A program made the position numbers and the translations under genes. The notes beneath the pieces are model-generated. The model was not told where the DNA came from and ran no database searches. It saw only the letters and a program-made list of their open reading frames with translations. A stretch of 64,000 nucleotides of DNA from a phage, in the NCBI GenBank assembly GCA_024672275.1, contig GCA_024672275.1_4536.1, one strand, 5' to 3'. Shown one piece after another: positions 3,309 through 42,234 of the stretch (its first letter is position 1; every line of letters begins with the position of its first letter).

Positions 3309-3524
3309 ATGGCTAATATCCGTACACTGTTAAAAAATGCAAGTCAAGTTTTATTTTCAGATGACGAGTATTTCAATAAAGACATTACAGGCGTAAAAAA
3401 TCTTAAAGATGTAAAGGATGTGATAGGTATTCGCGGATCTTTACGTAAAGGTGACTACTACGGCAATAAAGTACAATATAAATTAAATCAGTCTTATGAT
3501 TTTACTTTGACAATTATTTCATAA
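3309..3524 (+). CDS. hypothetical protein (71 aa)
   Basis: ATG 3309 after cassette; ORF track. Confidence 0.6.
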   Translation: MANIRTLLKNASQVLFSDDEYFNKDITGVKNLKDVKDVIGIRGSLRKGDYYGNKVQYKLNQSYDFTLTIIS

Positions 3525-3530
3525 AACCGC

Positions 3531-3592
3531 TTGCAATCTTAATAAAATAAAGTAAACTGTATTACATCAAGGCGGCGGAATGGTCCACCGCC
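3531..3592 (+). promoter_or_regulatory. sigma70-type promoter + GC hairpin cassette
   Basis: TTGCAA 3531-3536, N16, TAAACT 3553-3558, hairpin GGCGGCGGAA-TGG-TCCACCGCC 3571-3592. Confidence 0.6.
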
Positions 3593-3616
3593 TAACAAAG
3601 AGAAGAGGAAAATATC

Positions 3617-3784
3617 ATGATCACTTTCGCTACCCGTGAAGCCGCTCGCAACGTTGCACGTAAAGTTAACGCCGCCAACCTGGGTGCTACTTTTAAAGCC
3701 CCGGTGAAAGATGAATCAGGAAAATGGATCTTCCCTGGTCTGCGTCATGCTGACAAGTTAGGTACTTTAAGCCTTAAAAAATAA
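3617..3784 (+). CDS. hypothetical small protein (55 aa)
   Basis: ATG 3617 after cassette, RBS AGAGGAAAA; below ORF-track size cutoff. Confidence 0.5.
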   Translation: MITFATREAARNVARKVNAANLGATFKAPVKDESGKWIFPGLRHADKLGTLSLKK

Positions 3785-3787
3785 TCG

Positions 3788-3824
3788 TTGACTTTTCGTT
3801 ATAGCGCCTTACAATGGGCGCTAT
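3788..3824 (+). promoter_or_regulatory. sigma70-type promoter with palindrome overlapping -10 (operator-like)
   Basis: TTGACT 3788-3793, N16, TACAAT 3810-3815; perfect inverted repeat ATAGCGCC/GGCGCTAT 3801-3824 straddles the -10 instead of lying downstream. Confidence 0.55.
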
Positions 3825-3858
3825 AGAGAAGAGAAACCACTACTAACAAGGAAACATC

Positions 3859-4080
3859 ATGATCACTTTCGCTATTGTCGCCGTTGTTGCTGGTCAGGTT
3901 TACATAAACGATACATTCACCACAGAAGACAAGGCCGCAGGAGACATAACCGCCGTTTACAATGAGTGCAAGGCAGTAGAAAGGATGTTAGCGCCTTGTA
4001 TGCTAATGAGTGAACGCCAGGACGGGATAACAGTATTTACTAACATTGAAACAGGGTACCAAATGGTAGTAACAAAATAA
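3859..4080 (+). CDS. hypothetical protein (73 aa)
   Basis: ATG 3859; ORF track. Confidence 0.6.
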   Translation: MITFAIVAVVAGQVYINDTFTTEDKAAGDITAVYNECKAVERMLAPCMLMSERQDGITVFTNIETGYQMVVTK

Positions 4081-4083
4081 AGC

Positions 4084-4141
4084 TTGACACGGATTTAATT
4101 TTCAGTAAATTGTTACACGTAGGGCGGGAATAGTTCCCGCT
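4084..4141 (+). promoter_or_regulatory. sigma70-type promoter + GC hairpin cassette
   Basis: TTGACA 4084-4089, N16, TAAATT 4106-4111, GTTACACGTAGGGCGG box, hairpin AGCGGGAA-TAG-TTCCCGCT 4121-4141. Confidence 0.7.
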
Positions 4142-4158
4142 AAAAAGAGAGAAAGACC

Positions 4159-4512
4159 ATGAAAGCACAAAATACAATTAAAGAGTACGTCCTTGCCGCT
4201 ATCGATTTTAATGATTACAGTATTACAACCGAAAAAGAGAAGATCGCGGAATTGATGCGCCGTTTTAATTCCGAGTACTGGTACCCTGATAACCAATCAC
4301 GTTTTAATTATAGTATTGTTAAAGCACTTGCATCATGGTTACAAGGTTTGCCATCAGATATCAATATCGCTTTCGAATATTGGGAAATTGATCGCTTGTT
4401 AACATCCTGGGGATACATTAAAGAGAATAGCAGCGATGATAAAATCCAACGAGAAAGGGAAAATTATTGGCTTTATATTGCAGGCGTGATCCTTGCTTGC
4501 TCTTATGAATGA
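4159..4512 (+). CDS. hypothetical protein (117 aa)
   Basis: ATG 4159 after cassette; ORF track. Confidence 0.6.
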   Translation: MKAQNTIKEYVLAAIDFNDYSITTEKEKIAELMRRFNSEYWYPDNQSRFNYSIVKALASWLQGLPSDINIAFEYWEIDRLLTSWGYIKENSSDDKIQRERENYWLYIAGVILACSYE

Positions 4513-4518
4513 TAAACC

Positions 4519-4572
4519 TTGACAATTTTACAAAACAGTTTAAATTAACAATATAGCGGCAATGGTGCCGCT
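4519..4572 (+). promoter_or_regulatory. sigma70-type promoter + GC hairpin cassette
   Basis: TTGACA 4519-4524, N16, TAAATT 4541-4546, hairpin AGCGGCAATGGTGCCGCT 4555-4572. Confidence 0.65.
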
Positions 4573-4591
4573 CATATGAAGAGGAAACAAA

Positions 4592-4738
4592 ATGAATACA
4601 TCTAATCGCGCAGAAAAAATTCAATCTTCCAAGATCCGCAAAGCCTGGAACGAGGAAGTGATCCGCAAAGGCGACAAGCGCAATAAAACAAAGCGCGGGA
4701 AGAGTGACAAATATAATTGGATGGATTTAGAGGATTAA
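4592..4738 (+). CDS. small basic protein (48 aa, K/R-rich)
   Basis: ATG 4592 after cassette; RBS AGAGGAAA; below ORF-track cutoff. Confidence 0.45.
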   Translation: MNTSNRAEKIQSSKIRKAWNEEVIRKGDKRNKTKRGKSDKYNWMDLED

Positions 4739-4744
4739 CATAAC

Positions 4745-4772
4745 AAGGGCGCACCAAGCGCCCTTTCTTTTT
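4745..4772 (+). terminator. rho-independent terminator
   Basis: Hairpin AGGGCGC-ACCAA-GCGCCCT followed by TTTCTTTTT; identical copy at 10451-10479. Confidence 0.7.
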
Positions 4773-4793
4773 ACATGTAGAGGATAAACAAAA

Positions 4794-4979
4794 ATGACTT
4801 TAAACGAGCTTAAAACAGCCTACAGCGCAACATTAAAAATAGCCGTGCGCTACCGTGACGAATACGGTTTTATTGCGCAGGGCGTGATCCTGGGCTTTTC
4901 TGACGATGGTTTGATCTATGTTGATGCACATCATAATAAGGTAAAACCTGAAAACGTCATTAGCATAAAATATCTTTAA
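4794..4979 (+). CDS. hypothetical protein (61 aa)
   Basis: ATG 4794 with RBS AGAGGA; ORF track. Confidence 0.5.
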   Translation: MTLNELKTAYSATLKIAVRYRDEYGFIAQGVILGFSDDGLIYVDAHHNKVKPENVISIKYL

Positions 4980-15838: not shown

Positions 15839-16071
15839 TGAAAGGTAACAAGATGAAAGTTAATCAAGTGCCGAGCGCATACACTTTGTGGCTTGCGCGA
15901 GCGTTACACCAGACGATCAAAGACCCTAAGAAGCCAATGAAGAGCGGGAAGAAGTTTATGTCTAAGGGCAAAACAACCTTTGGCTTCACTCGTATGTCTG
16001 TTAAGATGAAAAGGCTGGGGTATAAGCCAAACTATGCGCGTTACCCTTCCGAATATAACTGGTTCGACTAA
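15835..16071 (+). CDS. hypothetical basic protein (78 aa)
   Basis: Internal ATG 15835 with RBS GAGGTG overlapping upstream stop; K/R-rich. Confidence 0.5.
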   Translation: MMKGNKMKVNQVPSAYTLWLARALHQTIKDPKKPMKSGKKFMSKGKTTFGFTRMSVKMKRLGYKPNYARYPSEYNWFD

Positions 16072-16083
16072 AAGGAGAAAGCA

Positions 16084-16557
16084 ATGGCAGGTTTGAAACT
16101 GGAAATGTTGACAAAGCAAGAATTTGTTCCCGAACATGGTGAAACTTACATTGCTTTCTTGATCAGTGATTTTTATGGGGATTTAGAATACGTTGAACTG
16201 GAATGTGAATTTCACTACCAGATGATCGACGCAGAAACTGGCTATTGCCTTTCTATGTCTGCGGTGTATAATGGGGATAACGGGATTCCTTTTCATACCG
16301 CAATGCGTTACGAAGCGAAAAACCGATTCAAACTTCTCACCGAAGAAGAGAAAGAGACATACAGGTATCACGAAGAAGAGGATCAACGCTTCTGGTGGGA
16401 GAAAACTTGGTTCCTGTCTGATCGCCGTAATCTCCAGATACACCCAGAAGAACTGGATGAAATGTCTATCGGGATTATGAAGAAGAAAGACTTCATGTTC
16501 CAGGTGAGAGAAGCTAATAAGTTCCGTATTGCAATTAAAGAGGAGAACAAAACATGA
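16084..16557 (+). CDS. hypothetical protein (157 aa)
   Basis: RBS AAAGGAGAAAG + ATG; ORF track. Confidence 0.6.
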   Translation: MAGLKLEMLTKQEFVPEHGETYIAFLISDFYGDLEYVELECEFHYQMIDAETGYCLSMSAVYNGDNGIPFHTAMRYEAKNRFKLLTEEEKETYRYHEEEDQRFWWEKTWFLSDRRNLQIHPEELDEMSIGIMKKKDFMFQVREANKFRIAIKEENKT

Positions 16558-16838
16558 AAACATCTATTCGCGTAAAACATGATCCAAACAGCAGTTACCC
16601 ATACGCGGATGTTGAACGTCATGAAGGAGACTATTACACCATAAAACGTAAAGTCCCAACTGATACAGGGTTTAACTTTGATGTTATTGCGCTGGATGAT
16701 CAAGGTGTTGATAATCTGGTGAATGCATTACTCGCATTGAAGGAAGTGCGATATGAAAATCAGACTAAAGGTAAAGTGGCTTTCGATTCTTGTGATCGTT
16801 TAGCCGAAGAGATTGCCGAATGGCGTGACACTAACTAA
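16554..16838 (+). CDS. hypothetical protein (94 aa)
   Basis: RBS AGAGGAG + ATG overlapping upstream stop. Confidence 0.6.
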   Translation: MKTSIRVKHDPNSSYPYADVERHEGDYYTIKRKVPTDTGFNFDVIALDDQGVDNLVNALLALKEVRYENQTKGKVAFDSCDRLAEEIAEWRDTN

Positions 16839-16853
16839 AACAGGAGAAAGATT

Positions 16854-17030
16854 ATGGCTACTTTTCAACAATTGAAAGATGTTTCACGTTTAGTAAGAAA
16901 AATCCGAGAAGCAGACGCTGCTGTGCGGAATGCATTAACGCCAGCAGAGCGTGAAGATCTTGAAGAGGAGGTGAAAACAGCCGAGAATGCTTTTGCTGTG
17001 TATCTTTCAACACTGTATACAGGAGGTTAA
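16854..17030 (+). CDS. hypothetical small protein (58 aa)
   Basis: RBS ACAGGAGAAAG + ATG; stop TAA abuts ATG 17031; below ORF-track cutoff. Confidence 0.5.
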   Translation: MATFQQLKDVSRLVRKIREADAAVRNALTPAEREDLEEEVKTAENAFAVYLSTLYTGG

Positions 17031-17345
17031 ATGTCAGAAGAACTTAAAGAATTTTATCAGGCATATCATAACTGGCTATTAGCTGGTGCTCCAGATAATA
17101 ATCCTTTCTGGCATGATAAAGGATTATGTAGTTGCCTCTACCTTTGGACTGGTGGTTACGATGATCTAAATTATGAAATGCAAATGCAATTTCGAGAAGC
17201 AGGGTTGTCTGAAGAATACCCGTTTGATGACGGAGACTGGTTTAAATATGATTTTGCACAAAGAAACGGGCTATTGCATTTGAATGCTGCCCGTATAAAA
17301 TGGGTAAAAGATCATGCTACACAGGAGGATGTGCAATGCCAATAG
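17031..17345 (+). CDS. paralog family member 3, 104 aa
   Basis: RBS ACAGGAGG + ATG; motifs LKEFYQAYHNWL, GLCSCL, PFD, RIKWVKDH. Confidence 0.65.
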   Translation: MSEELKEFYQAYHNWLLAGAPDNNPFWHDKGLCSCLYLWTGGYDDLNYEMQMQFREAGLSEEYPFDDGDWFKYDFAQRNGLLHLNAARIKWVKDHATQEDVQCQ

Positions 17346-38284: not shown

Positions 38285-38488
38285 TCACGTAGTTGTTATG
38301 TTGTCTTCTTGGATACTAGAATCCACTTCTGCAAACATATCTTCTGCACTGTAATTATTTCCAGTCCAGCGTGATAAAAGGATAGCAGCAATCTCTTTCG
38401 CATGAGATTCGGACTCTGCATAAACGTTAGTCCCAGTGTCACCTTTTTTCTTTTCATGTGCATAAATGCAGTAATAATTGTAAGCCAT
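38285..38488 (-). CDS. hypothetical protein (67 aa)
   Basis: ATG overlapping upstream stop (TAATG); ORF track. Confidence 0.5.
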   Translation of the reverse strand: MAYNYYCIYAHEKKKGDTGTNVYAESESHAKEIAAILLSRWTGNNYSAEDMFAEVDSSIQEDNITTT

Positions 38489-38724
38489 TAATCTTCCCAG
38501 TCATTGCCCTCGGTAGAGTGAACTAAAGCTCGCACGATACCACCGTAATCTACTGCCTGATTTGCAGCATGTTCGGCATAAACTTCAATGGCTTTTTTGA
38601 AGAAAAGAGCAGTAGCTGCTTCAATATTATCCATTTCGCCATCTACGTCAGTAGAAAGTGAAAGGTTGAGGCTTTCATCTACTTCATCAAAATCAATAGC
38701 CACTGTCATAATTAGTTTACCCAT
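38488..38724 (-). CDS. hypothetical acidic protein (78 aa)
   Basis: RBS TAAGGAG + ATG; ORF track. Confidence 0.55.
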   Translation of the reverse strand: MGKLIMTVAIDFDEVDESLNLSLSTDVDGEMDNIEAATALFFKKAIEVYAEHAANQAVDYGGIVRALVHSTEGNDWED

Positions 38725-38736
38725 AGTTCACACTCC

Positions 38737-39246
38737 TTAAACAAAATAAAATGGTTGAGAGAGGCCCAAACGATTCTTTGGGTCGTATACATACCAAGCG
38801 TATGCTGTCTTATCTGTTCCACCTGCAACAAACGAAGGCCGTTCTGAAAGGACTATAAGGTTTGTTGGTGGATTCTTTTGATGGAACTCTCGTCGTTTCT
38901 TTGACTCCAAGAAGCCCAACCGAAGAAGATAAATACAAACATCCGCCTCTTTTAAGCTCTTTTCCAAGAACTCCATTGCTAACTTAAATGGAGGATTTGT
39001 GATTATAATGTCGGGACGATTTTCCCATTCATGACTAAAATAATCTTTACCTTCTTCAAGTTCGCAATATTCTGAACCTTCAGGAAAATGGCGATAAATC
39101 GCTTCAGCTTCACCTCTGCAAGGTTCTGCAAAAACCCAACCTTCTTCCTTTAGATTTTTGAAATCTATAACACTAAACAAACTATTGATTGCTTTTTGCG
39201 GTGTCGGATAATAATCGCTCGTTGGGCGATCATAATCTAATGCCAT
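38737..39246 (-). CDS. small methyltransferase-like protein with NPPF motif (169 aa)
   Basis: TNPPF resembles N6-adenine/amino-MTase motif IV (D/N-PP-Y/F); RBS AGAGGAG. Confidence 0.35.
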   Translation of the reverse strand: MALDYDRPTSDYYPTPQKAINSLFSVIDFKNLKEEGWVFAEPCRGEAEAIYRHFPEGSEYCELEEGKDYFSHEWENRPDIIITNPPFKLAMEFLEKSLKEADVCIYLLRLGFLESKKRREFHQKNPPTNLIVLSERPSFVAGGTDKTAYAWYVYDPKNRLGLSQPFYFV

Positions 39247-39685: not shown

Positions 39686-39706
39686 AAATGCCCCCGAAGG
39701 GGCAGT
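39686..39706 (-). terminator. rho-independent terminator
   Basis: - strand UGCCCC-UUCG-GGGGCA followed by UUUCUUAAA. Confidence 0.6.
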
Positions 39707-39709
39707 TTG

Positions 39710-40402
39710 TTAAATAGCGGTTCCTTCGAAATCCGCCACATTTACGAGATTAATATTTTCAGATTTAGAAGTCAAGTTGTTTTCTGCAACAGATTTTTCT
39801 TCAGTATCCGCCTCGTTACCTGCCACGTTACGAGGTTCTTCTTCACCGTAGGGATTACCGAATTTCAAAAGATTGATCAATTCTTCTTTGGAGAAGTTTT
39901 CTAAATCATCATCTGTTAATTCAATAATCTCGTCTTGTTCTTCAATAAATGTTTCACCACCAGAAAAAGCATCTCGCTTTTTAGCTACTTCCATAGCCTG
40001 TTCTGGTGTTGCCCCTGCATCAAGAGCAGCTAAAGCAAAATCTGACCCACTCCCTACTGCATAATATTCTTCATCAATCGGATATGCACGTGTTGGGTTG
40101 TTACCTTCGTGCAGGAAAATACGTCCGTCTGGATGAACAACAAGTGCAATAAACTCTTCATCTTCTTTATCTGGATCAGAGTGAATCATCAAACCAGGGA
40201 CAGCATCACGTGCTGCTTCGCACTGTAGATTTTGTTCAAACCATTGAAAGAAAGAAAGCACGGAGGTCAGACGACCAGCACCACCTACAAGGTAATCTCC
40301 AATTTTTCGGACCTTTTTGAAATTAATAGAATCTACACGTCCACCAAAAGTTACCTTACCGTCACTCAAAATCTTATTTTTGGTTGCAATAATTGTCGTC
40401 AC
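39710..40402 (-). CDS. HslV/proteasome beta-like Ntn-hydrolase protein (230 aa)
   Basis: GTG start giving N-terminus (M)TTIIATKN with Thr after initiator, followed by GG.......KKVRK...GGAG pattern like HslV; RBS GGAGGAAGAA. Confidence 0.45.
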   Translation of the reverse strand: MTTIIATKNKILSDGKVTFGGRVDSINFKKVRKIGDYLVGGAGRLTSVLSFFQWFEQNLQCEAARDAVPGLMIHSDPDKEDEEFIALVVHPDGRIFLHEGNNPTRAYPIDEEYYAVGSGSDFALAALDAGATPEQAMEVAKKRDAFSGGETFIEEQDEIIELTDDDLENFSKEELINLLKFGNPYGEEEPRNVAGNEADTEEKSVAENNLTSKSENINLVNVADFEGTAI

Positions 40403-40905
40403 TATTCTTCCTCCTCTGTTAATGTTTTAAGAACCGCTTTCCCGCCATTCACGTATTTGCAGATGTATTCTATCGCACGTAGCGTCTCTTTGTCAACAAA
40501 AATTTGATCAGACGTTGCGAGCGGGTTATTAAGAAGATCACTGCAATCACGAACAAGCAGTGCTTTCTTATTAAACAAATTACTTAAGAACAGTAACTTC
40601 GCCTCTTCTTCTGTTATGTGCAGAAGGCTAGGATCGGAGCCAGCTATTCCTATTATACAATCAAACAAGCTTTCTTTACTATCAGAAAGTTCTTGAAAAT
40701 GGTTTAAAAGCCAATCTTCTCCTAGACACCAACATTTAAACATTTCCAGTTTATCTCGGAGGGTCATATTCTCTAAAGTAAGAGCAATCTCTTTTTCAAT
40801 ATGGTTTACACAAATTTGACGAAATTCGTTAGGTTTTACGAGTCCCGTTTGATAGCACTCATCTATACCGCTTCTTCCGATAGCTATTGTTGCTACACCC
40901 ATCAA
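40402..40905 (-). CDS. hypothetical protein (167 aa)
   Basis: RBS AAGGAGG + ATG; ORF track. Confidence 0.55.
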   Translation of the reverse strand: MMGVATIAIGRSGIDECYQTGLVKPNEFRQICVNHIEKEIALTLENMTLRDKLEMFKCWCLGEDWLLNHFQELSDSKESLFDCIIGIAGSDPSLLHITEEEAKLLFLSNLFNKKALLVRDCSDLLNNPLATSDQIFVDKETLRAIEYICKYVNGGKAVLKTLTEEEE

Positions 40906-40937: not shown

Positions 40938-41696
40938 TTAAATAAACACTTCAGTAATCAGTTTAGACAAACGTCCACGTTTATTATCGTCCGTTGTCAG
41001 TTCAACGTATCCAATAAAATCTACAATTGGCTCACGAACACCTTCTTCATTTTCTGGATATAAAAGTTCCAAAATTTGATGCAGACCATTGCTACGTTTT
41101 TTAATTGCATATGTCTGGCGAACATCGCCTAATACAATAACATGCGTATTAATACCTGCACGTTCAATAAGAAGTTTAAGTGTTTCTGTTGACATAAGTT
41201 GTGCTTCGTCAATAATGACGATTGTATTATCCAGGGTAGCCCCTAACAAATAGTTAGGAATATTCAATTCGATCTTACCTGATCCAATATCGTTTTCCAA
41301 TTTGTTGGCTGTCATGAATTGCTGGAAAATACGTTTTGTAGATTCATAGTGTGCTGCTAGTTTATCTGTTTTATCCCCCGACAAGAAACCAATCTGATCA
41401 TCTCCGACTTCAGTAGGGTTCTTGATAAAAAGTAGTTTACGGAAGTCTCCTGAACGAAGCATCTGCAAAGCTTTCCATAAAGCAACAGAGGTTTTACCAG
41501 TCCCTGCCGGAGCATTTACAACAGTCAGATCATTCCAAATCATGCTTTGAACAATCTTATTTTGGTCCCCTTCAGGCATAAATTCATCTAAACGGTAATC
41601 GTCATTACCTACCGCTTTTGCTGCATAACGGCTTTCAATCTTTGCTGAATTAGCCAGTTTCTGCCGTTGTGTTTTAGCTGCGGTTTTATTTCCCAT
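40938..41696 (-). CDS. phoH: PhoH-like ATPase (252 aa)
   Basis: Walker A APAGTGKTSVAL, Walker B IIDEAQ, PhoH-like C-terminus; internal ATG 41696 with RBS AAAAGGAG just after hairpin. Confidence 0.8.
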   Translation of the reverse strand: MGNKTAAKTQRQKLANSAKIESRYAAKAVGNDDYRLDEFMPEGDQNKIVQSMIWNDLTVVNAPAGTGKTSVALWKALQMLRSGDFRKLLFIKNPTEVGDDQIGFLSGDKTDKLAAHYESTKRIFQQFMTANKLENDIGSGKIELNIPNYLLGATLDNTIVIIDEAQLMSTETLKLLIERAGINTHVIVLGDVRQTYAIKKRSNGLHQILELLYPENEEGVREPIVDFIGYVELTTDDNKRGRLSKLITEVFI

Positions 41697-41711
41697 AGTA
41701 GCACTCCTTTT

Positions 41712-41735
41712 AGAAGGGGCCGAAGCCCCTTTATT
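41712..41735 (-). promoter_or_regulatory. UUCG-tetraloop hairpin (family copy 2), terminator/processing site
   Basis: Identical AAGGGGC-TTCG-GCCCCTT between lysozyme stop (41734) and phoH RBS; weak U-tract, so may be attenuator or stability element. Confidence 0.5.
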
Positions 41736-42234
41736 AGTTGTAAGCATCTAAAGTTCCAGAAGTCAGAACTTTAATTACTCGTTCAGCACGGTTTGGCGTC
41801 TGGCTATACCATCGGCTTTTACGCATGTTTTTACCTGCTTGAGTATAATATGCATTGCTGATTAAAGTCAAGCTATTTTGAAACCCTTCAGCACCTTTTA
41901 ACCCCAACTGGAAAACCATGTTGATTATTCCCAATTTACGAGTATCACTAACCTTATCATAGATTGGTGATAAGATAGTACTGTTTTTTATGTCTCTCTT
42001 CACTTTTGCAACATCATCAGCAAAGATTTGACGGGCTTCTTTTTCTGTGATAACTCCATTAGTCTTACGACCAAGAAGATTATCTAAGATTTGAATAGCC
42101 TTTGCTTTATCTTTTATTTTAGTCAGAAGGTGTCCTATGCCGACTGTCCAATAACCAAGATGGTCTTGATAAACAGTAAGCTTCAGTCCTTCATCGACTC
42201 GTAGCATATCAAACTCATCTACTACTTTAGCCAT
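41734..42234 (-). CDS. T4-type lysozyme (GH24 endolysin), 166 aa
   Basis: Near-colinear with T4 gene e lysozyme: catalytic region MLR.DEGL.L..Y.D..GYWTIGIGHLLTK, C-terminal SRWY.QTPNRA..VI. Confidence 0.9.
   Translation of the reverse strand: MAKVVDEFDMLRVDEGLKLTVYQDHLGYWTVGIGHLLTKIKDKAKAIQILDNLLGRKTNGVITEKEARQIFADDVAKVKRDIKNSTILSPIYDKVSDTRKLGIINMVFQLGLKGAEGFQNSLTLISNAYYTQAGKNMRKSRWYSQTPNRAERVIKVLTSGTLDAYN

Follow-up and report, generated by a model that had tools for sequence, protein, structure and literature searches.

A proteasome/HslV-type peptidase gene with a C-terminal extension in a phAPEC8-like phage

Phage proteasome homologues (PPH) were catalogued bioinformatically by Fuchs, Alva, and Lupas in 2021, who described them without an associated AAA+ partner or an informative gene context (PMC8665760). 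A structural hallmark that PPH share with RPC proteins is that helix H2 is missing, and C termini are described as facing away from the presumed rings, where they are possible interaction sites (PMC8665760). In HslV (ClpQ), the C-terminal tail of HslU is received by a pocket comprising F54, F57, A79/K80 (on H2), and Q114 (PMC6429459), and a basic pore cluster, R86/R89/K90, is required for HslV activity (PMC5777263). BPH, a homo-oligomeric proteasome homologue of Betaproteobacteria (Protein Data Bank (PDB) entries 5ovs/5ovt), is derived from HslV (PMC5777263). Here we analyze a gene of this kind from a 64,000-nucleotide stretch of phage DNA (NCBI GenBank assembly GCA_024672275.1, contig GCA_024672275.1_4536.1), the whole of which is called the window below. 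The gene occupies positions 39710-40402 on the minus strand and is a complete coding sequence, with a GTG start and a TAA stop (39710-39712), for a PPH-type ('peptidase HslV family') protein of 230 amino acids, hereafter the peptidase. This protein is probably a peptidase of the proteasome/HslV fold that is catalytically competent through an N-terminal threonine; it most likely functions free of HslU, and its role may be an accessory one.

The window is 99.4 to 99.8% identical to Phapecoctavirus genomes (phAPEC8-like Escherichia coli myoviruses, Stephanstirmvirinae), and 71 records cover the region. One of these phages, Mt1B1_P17, is 99.6% identical to the window over the peptidase region and is used as the reference throughout.

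Active site and fold of the phage peptidase

The open reading frame (ORF) of the peptidase, whose listed translation opens MTTIIATKNKILSDGKVTFGGRVDSINFKKVRKIGDYLVGGAGR, has the GTG-ACG-ACA beginning that was given for it in an initial annotation made from the DNA letters: tgtcgtcac on the plus strand at 40394-40402 reads GTG ACG ACA on the minus strand (M-T-T-I-I). A strong Shine-Dalgarno sequence, GAGGAGG, can be read 7 nucleotides upstream of the GTG (40410-40416, minus strand). The codons for fMet-Thr-Thr-Ile lie at 40391-40402 on the same strand and, judging from the sequence and its relatives, Thr2 would become the N-terminal nucleophile (Thr1) once Met is lost. Methionine aminopeptidase removes fMet before Thr, and E. 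coli HslV (MTTIVSV...) matures in this manner. In the stop-to-stop frame, only eight codons lie between the preceding in-frame stop and the GTG, and because none of them is a start codon, no propeptide could be encoded.

Conservation was assessed in an alignment of the 150 cluster representatives listed, one per 50%-identity cluster, from an exhaustive HMMER search. Among these distant relatives, 136 begin with MTT and 142 carry Thr at position 2. The remaining catalytic residues of the peptidase, numbered from Met1, are likewise present (D14, K30, G43, G117-S118-G119, and D144/S147, in addition to T2). Asp14, found in 145 of the relatives, and Lys30, found in 149, are the equivalents of proteasome Asp17 and Lys33. 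Both glycines of the GSG motif (Gly117 and Gly119) are present in all 150, and the serine between them in 135, with Thr in its place in another 13. Asp144 (145 of 150), Ser/Thr147 (148), and Gly148 (131) correspond to the proteasome-type RDxxSGG motif (Asp166/Ser169). The residue set of an N-terminal nucleophile (Ntn) hydrolase of this type was thus found as a whole, namely an N-terminal Thr/Ser, Asp17, Lys33, the oxyanion Gly, Ser129 of GSG, and Asp166/Ser169, with 135 to 150 of the 150 relatives in agreement. Because the catalytic residues are almost invariant across the relatives, this conservation argues for an enzyme that is catalytically active.

Family and structure comparisons lead to the same assignment, with matches well beyond what chance would give. 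The peptidase passes the Pfam model PF00227 (Proteasome) with 25.6 bits against a gathering threshold of 22.4 (E = 1.1e-5), and it matches PHROG 1040, 'peptidase HslV family', over its full length (E = 1.6e-63). With the single sequence, Thermotoga maritima HslV (1m4y) is the best solved relative (E = 4.9e-9), and a 22-sequence profile searched against the PDB retrieves HslV at E = 1.2e-14 and proteasome beta5 at E = 4e-11. An AlphaFold2 model of the peptidase has a mean predicted local distance difference test (pLDDT) score of 80, with values mostly of 86 to 98 in the core blocks and of 69 to 77 over the loop at residues 61-80. A Foldseek search with this model places the HslV structures 3ty6 and 1m4y at the top (E of about 1e-10, target template modeling (TM) scores of 0.69 to 0.70), followed by BPH and then by archaeal and eukaryotic 20S beta subunits, all at a probability of 1.00. 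The model, Foldseek, and PF00227 together identify the four-layer alpha-beta-beta-alpha proteasome fold. The initial annotation had proposed an HslV- or proteasome-beta-like Ntn hydrolase and had named structure prediction and comparison with HslV as a check; the predicted fold is that of an Ntn hydrolase, its best matches are HslV structures, and the proposal agrees with the evidence from fold, family, and active site. The FGG, KKVRK, and GGAG strings on which the proposal had drawn are all found in the translation.

According to the model, Foldseek, and conservation, the catalytic core comprises residues 1-160 (39923-40402, minus strand) and is a beta-sandwich with one long helix, H1 (45-67), and no H2. 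Its landmarks are an acidic loop, DPDKEDEE (76-83), followed by GSG (117-119) and RDAFSGG (143-149). DSSP applied to the model assigns a helix to residues 45-67, coil to 68-83, strands, and two further helices at 120-128 and 133-143, with H2 absent.

If the peptidase works as we propose, translation would start at the GTG, and host methionine aminopeptidase would take off fMet, with no need for a propeptide or for autocatalytic processing. The amino group and hydroxyl of the freed Thr1 would then act with Asp14 and Lys30, a catalytic role that we infer from the residues, and the GSG serine with the Asp and Ser of RDxxSGG would complete a classical proteasomal active site. The protein would probably form a single or double ring that encloses the active sites, as other members of the family do. 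A profile search of ORFs of at least 50 amino acids, covering the window and the rest of the Mt1B1_P17 genome, returned no second proteasome-like gene; with a single such gene in the phage, any ring would therefore be homo-oligomeric.

The assembly step is where a different use of the same active site has to be considered. The peptidase might be a specific processing enzyme, or a transpeptidase or ligase comparable to connectase; it might be active as a monomer or small oligomer and be directed at a single target from phage or host. The superfamily does contain a monomeric, highly specific ligase (PMC8665760), the loss of H2 together with the C-terminal addition could alter or prevent ring assembly, and BPH shows that an equally intact active site can be inactive on standard substrates. 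Against this, the S3/S4 helical insertion that defines connectase is absent from the model, the closest structural matches are the ring-forming HslV, BPH, and 20S beta subunits, and no candidate substrate is linked to the peptidase gene. We regard a dedicated processing role as very unlikely.

Among described proteins, PPH resemble the peptidase in their occurrence in tailed (Caudovirales) phages of Proteobacteria, in a beta-sandwich core with Thr1/Asp/Lys, and in the lack of both a propeptide and an AAA+ partner. As expected for this group, H2 is absent from the model while H1, H3, and H4 are kept. Homologues are found in 234 phage records of Escherichia, Vibrio, Caulobacter, Aeromonas, Klebsiella, Rhizobium, and other hosts, and the metagenomic loci that encode relatives are phage-like. 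RPC proteins also lack H2 and carry a C-terminal extension without a match to known structures; compared by description, they differ in being found only in proteobacterial genomes, not in phages, and in forming a more divergent cluster (PMC8665760). The 20S beta subunits (beta5 and archaeal beta) share the fold, the catalytic residues, GSG, and RDxxSGG, whereas the peptidase has no propeptide, alpha-subunit partner, H2, or H5 and is much smaller. BPH, like the peptidase, has no partner unfoldase and has an acidic loop at the pore position, but it keeps H2 and a long pore loop, is bacterial rather than viral, and is only marginally similar in sequence (phmmer E = 1) and more distant in structure (target TM of only 0.54 to 0.55). 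HslV, the proteolytic subunit of bacterial HslUV, forms a dodecamer of two hexameric rings, and its gene usually shares an operon with that of its ATPase partner, HslU. It is the best match among solved structures by both sequence and fold, and it shares the MTTI N terminus and the Thr1/Asp17/Lys33/Ser124 arrangement. Nevertheless, identity to HslV is only about 22 to 28%, the N-terminal hairpin of the peptidase is 4 residues shorter, and the peptidase differs further in a 70-residue extension at its C terminus, in the RDxxSGG motif, which is missing from E. coli HslV, and in having no hslU neighbor.

HslU docking features and the C-terminal extension

The peptidase is not an HslV orthologue. 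The NCBIfam equivalog models for HslV, TIGR03692 and NF003964, give scores of 31.4 and 32.2 bits against cutoffs of 157.75 and 137, and a recent capture of the host hslV gene is ruled out by these scores, which fall about 100 bits short, and by an identity to E. coli HslV of only about 22%.

The residues involved in docking were mapped by means of the family alignment, to which an E. coli HslV sequence was added whose residue numbers match those given in PMC6429459. At the positions of the HslU-tail pocket, F54 is replaced by L, A79/K80 by a gap or by variable residues, and Q114 by A, E, or P, leaving F57 as the only residue kept; the A79/K80 positions fall in a degenerate loop of the alignment. 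K28 of HslV, which we take to be a further contact of the HslU tail, is at a position that is not conserved in the family. R86, L88, and R89 lie in a gap in 142 to 143 of the 150 relatives and also in the peptidase itself; of the basic pore cluster, the mapping covered R86 and R89. The acidic DPDKEDEE loop stands where this basic cluster would be, and the family as a whole has a median net charge of -3 there. No HslU or ClpX-like gene was found when the annotation of the near-identical Mt1B1_P17 genome was searched.

These observations bear on whether the peptidase could serve as a surrogate HslV, with phage rings docking on the host HslU hexamer and redirecting the unfoldase to a proteolytic chamber under phage control. 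Such a partner would be at hand, as HslU is present in E. coli, and all known hosts of the family (Escherichia, Vibrio, Aeromonas, and Caulobacter) are bacteria with hslVU. The closest solved relatives are HslV structures, the phages have no unfoldase of their own that tracks the peptidase gene, and F57 and E61, which belong to the H1 face of HslV, are kept. However, the equivalog models are missed by more than 100 bits at the low identity given above, H2, the source of A79 and K80 of the tail pocket, is absent, F54 and Q114 are not conserved, and the pore residues R86 and R89 are deleted, with an acidic loop in their place. We therefore consider the surrogate role unlikely. The initial annotation had left open whether the protein pairs with host HslU or acts alone; the stand-alone option is the likelier one, because the H2, tail-pocket, and basic-pore features have been lost and the phage has no HslU, and pairing is disfavored on the same evidence. 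We accordingly favor a peptidase that would work, most likely, without HslU, its acidic loop replacing the basic cluster as in the unfoldase-independent BPH.

Beyond the core, the last strand is followed in the long forms of the family by an acidic linker and a helical element of about 21 residues, for which the consensus is EExExLT[RK]ExLxxM[ST]KEELLxxLFG. In the peptidase this element comprises residues 162-182 (LTDDDLENFSKEELINLLKFG; 39857-39919, minus strand), and AlphaFold2 predicts helices at 164-169 and 172-181 with pLDDT values of 82 to 86. The strict motif pattern occurs in 46 of the 73 relatives with at least 175 amino acids versus 1 of the 77 shorter ones. The peptidase ends in a variable acidic tail, residues 183-230 (39713-39856, minus strand), which is predicted to be disordered (pLDDT below 50 for 189-229); the net charge over residues 161-230 is -13. 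The tail cannot be aligned among relatives, and in other phages extra domains replace it.

Published PPH are about 140 amino acids long, and in this respect the extended forms differ from them: the C-terminal motif and the variable acidic tail are common to about 60 cluster representatives. HMMER places 60 representatives at E <= 1e-30, mostly of 180 to 350 amino acids, and the lower part of the 150 listed consists mainly of proteins of about 137 to 160 amino acids with E values of about 1e-24 to 1e-30. The conserved helical motif, which on this distribution appears to define a subfamily, is a modest addition of the present analysis. The motif of one relative looked by eye like a SAP/HeH/Rho_N/LEM helix-extended-helix DNA-binding element, but this identity was dropped when eight tails scanned against Pfam (E <= 10) returned nothing beyond noise and thus no family for either the motif or the tails.

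The helical motif and the acidic tail might together form an outward-facing docking or regulatory element. A bolder idea is that the C-extended PPH subfamily represents an unfoldase-independent viral chamber, in which the motif and the fast-evolving tail would recruit particular host proteins (for example, defense or stress factors) to be degraded, maybe together with the products of the upstream, co-transcribed genes X and phoH; this we hold tentatively and think rather unlikely.

Gene neighborhood and candidate partners

Genes for nucleotide metabolism and DNA modification surround the peptidase gene on the minus strand, in an early/middle region far from the head module. The order runs from ribonucleotide reductase (RNR) genes through lysozyme, a PhoH-like ATPase, X, and the peptidase to methyltransferases, a phosphatase, and DprA. 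The PhoH-like P-loop ATPase gene is at 40938-41747 on the minus strand (RefSeq start, 41696), and its product matches the Pfam families PF02562, AAA_30, and DEAD. ORF X (40402-40902, minus strand) encodes 166 amino acids and belongs to PHROG 14834, which is labeled as of unknown function. Its TAG stop shares one base with the peptidase GTG, an overlap that marks the two genes as translationally coupled. The predicted structure of X is all-alpha (pLDDT 90), its motifs GLVKPNEFRQI, LVRDCSD, and VDKETLRAIEY are strongly conserved, and structure and family comparison of the predicted protein yielded no informative match.

A terminator-like hairpin identified by a consensus scan, TGCCCC-TTCG-GGGGCA followed by TTTCTT (39689-39704, minus strand), begins 5 nucleotides past the peptidase stop. 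It is GC-rich, has T-rich tails on both strands, and lies inside the 45-nucleotide gap after the stop. The hairpin suggests that the peptidase gene ends a transcription unit. A sigma-70-like consensus match, TTGACA-18-TAGAAT (11 of 12 positions; 40467-40496, minus strand), is found inside X about 65 nucleotides before the GTG, and in combination with the hairpin it suggests that the peptidase could also have a transcript of its own.

One natural isolate carries a deletion in this arrangement. In Escherichia phage VEcB (Justusliebigvirus, NC_052663.1, 2501-3304), a single ORF begins with PhoH residues 1-113 and continues with the peptidase, starting at about residue 68 of the latter. This in-frame deletion removes X and the first approximately 67 peptidase codons, including those for Thr1, Asp, and Lys, so that only the C-terminal part of about 155 amino acids remains; the chimera is nonetheless still labeled 'peptidase HslV family' in RefSeq. 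Unless the deletion is an assembly artifact, PhoH, X, and the peptidase would be dispensable for laboratory propagation. The location among early/middle nucleotide-metabolism genes, rather than in the head module, and the dispensability in at least one natural isolate point to an accessory role, in which the peptidase may degrade or process proteins or peptides of host or phage origin in the course of infection.

The shared deletion also bears on the idea that the PhoH-like ATPase, X, and the peptidase form one functional module, with X as an adaptor or regulator and PhoH possibly as an energy-dependent partner engaged through the C-terminal motif. One deletion in VEcB hits parts of all three genes, the TAG/GTG overlap couples translation of X and the peptidase, and the terminator-like hairpin follows the last of the three. 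Moreover, phi92 shows the lysozyme-PhoH-X-peptidase order, as do metagenomic phages with peptidases that are 42 to 50% identical, and PhoH is found upstream in Aeromonas and Vibrio phages with peptidases of about 35 to 38% identity; the Aeromonas locus has a lysozyme gene as well. In Stephanstirmvirinae-like phages, X always separates PhoH from the peptidase, but it is missing from the Aeromonas and Vibrio loci and has no structural match that would inform on such a function. By Pfam, PhoH is a helicase-like P-loop NTPase and not an AAA+ unfoldase; there is no nearby PhoH at the short-PPH locus examined (L010) or in phiCbK; and a gene order shared by one broad phage lineage can be passed on without a functional link. 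A three-gene module thus seems decidedly unlikely, and a peptidase acting in its own right remains the reading we prefer. In the wider neighborhood, RNR genes precede the lysozyme-PhoH stretch (40938-42234, minus strand) in the metagenomic loci and in Mt1B1_P17, and the metagenomic loci also have a glutaredoxin gene.

Outside the window, Mt1B1_P17 (NC_052662.1) encodes at 16017-17156 on the minus strand a 379-amino-acid AAA (PF00004) ATPase, gp041, with weak similarity to the Rix7/VCP D-domain. It is the only PF00004 ATPase of this phage, and ATPases of its type are widespread among large phages that infect Firmicutes and Enterobacteria. We rejected gp041 as a dedicated unfoldase for the peptidase: its homologues come mostly from Enterococcus, Bacillus, Staphylococcus, and Lactococcus phages, groups that are absent from the peptidase matches, and the ten commonest groups of gp041 matches do not include the Vibrio, Caulobacter, and Rhizobium phages, which do carry the peptidase.

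A role of the peptidase as the capsid (prohead) maturation protease could be entertained because RefSeq annotates no head protease for this phage. However, the head module has a separate ORF of the XkdF/S78 protease type between the portal and scaffold/capsid genes, the HslV-like gene is about 30 kb away among nucleotide-metabolism genes and on a different transcription unit, and VEcB is viable without the catalytic part. This explanation is effectively refuted. The ORF in question, at 38391-38870 on the minus strand of Mt1B1_P17 and outside the window, is labeled 'DNA methyltransferase' in RefSeq. It matches Peptidase_S78_2/XkdF (E = 1.4e-11) and PHROG families for head maturation proteases, and on these matches it is probably the real prohead protease, mis-annotated.

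Weight of the evidence, existing annotation, and natural variants

Several points weigh against the reading of the peptidase as an active, HslU-independent member of the PPH lineage. Our literature search found no experimental study of phage HslV/PPH proteins, only annotations and the 2021 bioinformatic survey. BPH is inactive on standard substrates despite its equally intact active site (PMC5777263), for which reason the label 'peptidase' rests here on the residues. At 230 amino acids, from a 160-amino-acid core and a 70-amino-acid extension, the protein exceeds the approximately 140 amino acids of PPH, which we treat as a subfamily difference, and its fit, with a C-terminal extension, to the PPH lineage (reference sequence WP_042125023.1 in the published CLANS map) is judged by features and, indirectly, by the run of matches of about 137 to 160 amino acids. 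The retention of F57 and E61 is likewise unfavorable, and another mode of docking to HslU, or to another host unfoldase, would be compatible with loss of the canonical pocket. Finally, the VEcB deletion, on which part of the case for an accessory role depends, could be an assembly artifact.

The gene itself has been recognized before, both in annotations and in bioinformatic work. A 99.6%-identical protein is annotated as 'peptidase HslV family' in RefSeq or as 'ATP-dependent protease subunit HslV', and the phi92 protein as 'putative 20S proteasome', while many other phage records label the gene 'hypothetical protein'. Because the gene is annotated and the family published, the novelty of our findings is low. 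What they add are refinements to the family-level label, in that the protein is not an HslV orthologue, has lost the HslU-docking features, and carries a C-terminal motif that appears to mark a subfamily.

Note that viral proteasome-type peptidases have so far been annotated and catalogued by sequence. If the peptidase is active, large lytic phages would bring a compartmentalized protease of their own into the cell, which would bear on the ways in which phages reshape the host proteome, reuse amino acids, or disarm host proteins. Should the C-extended proteins indeed form an unfoldase-independent chamber, they would be the first viral degradation system of the proteasome type to be defined in function. 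The phAPEC8/phi92 group offers a convenient test of the need for an unfoldase, since these phages are easily grown and well studied, the active site is intact, a deletion variant exists in VEcB, and host hslU and hslV knockouts are available.

Two other records show variation in how such genes are annotated or arranged. In vB_EcoM-Ro121c4YLVW (NC_052654.1, 711-1403, minus strand), the protein is annotated as 159 amino acids from an internal ATG (MIHSDPD...), which leaves out the GTG start and the catalytic Thr1 even though the 230-amino-acid ORF is intact over its whole length. Aeromonas phage 2L372D (NC_048769.1) has two different proteasome-like genes in tandem, at 3432-3983 and 4001-4885. 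The first encodes 183 amino acids from a TTG start (TCIIAL...) and has GCG instead of GSG, and the second encodes a C-extended PPH of 294 amino acids from a GTG start (VTTIAYK...). This tandem pair hints at hetero-oligomeric proteasome-like particles in some phage lineages.

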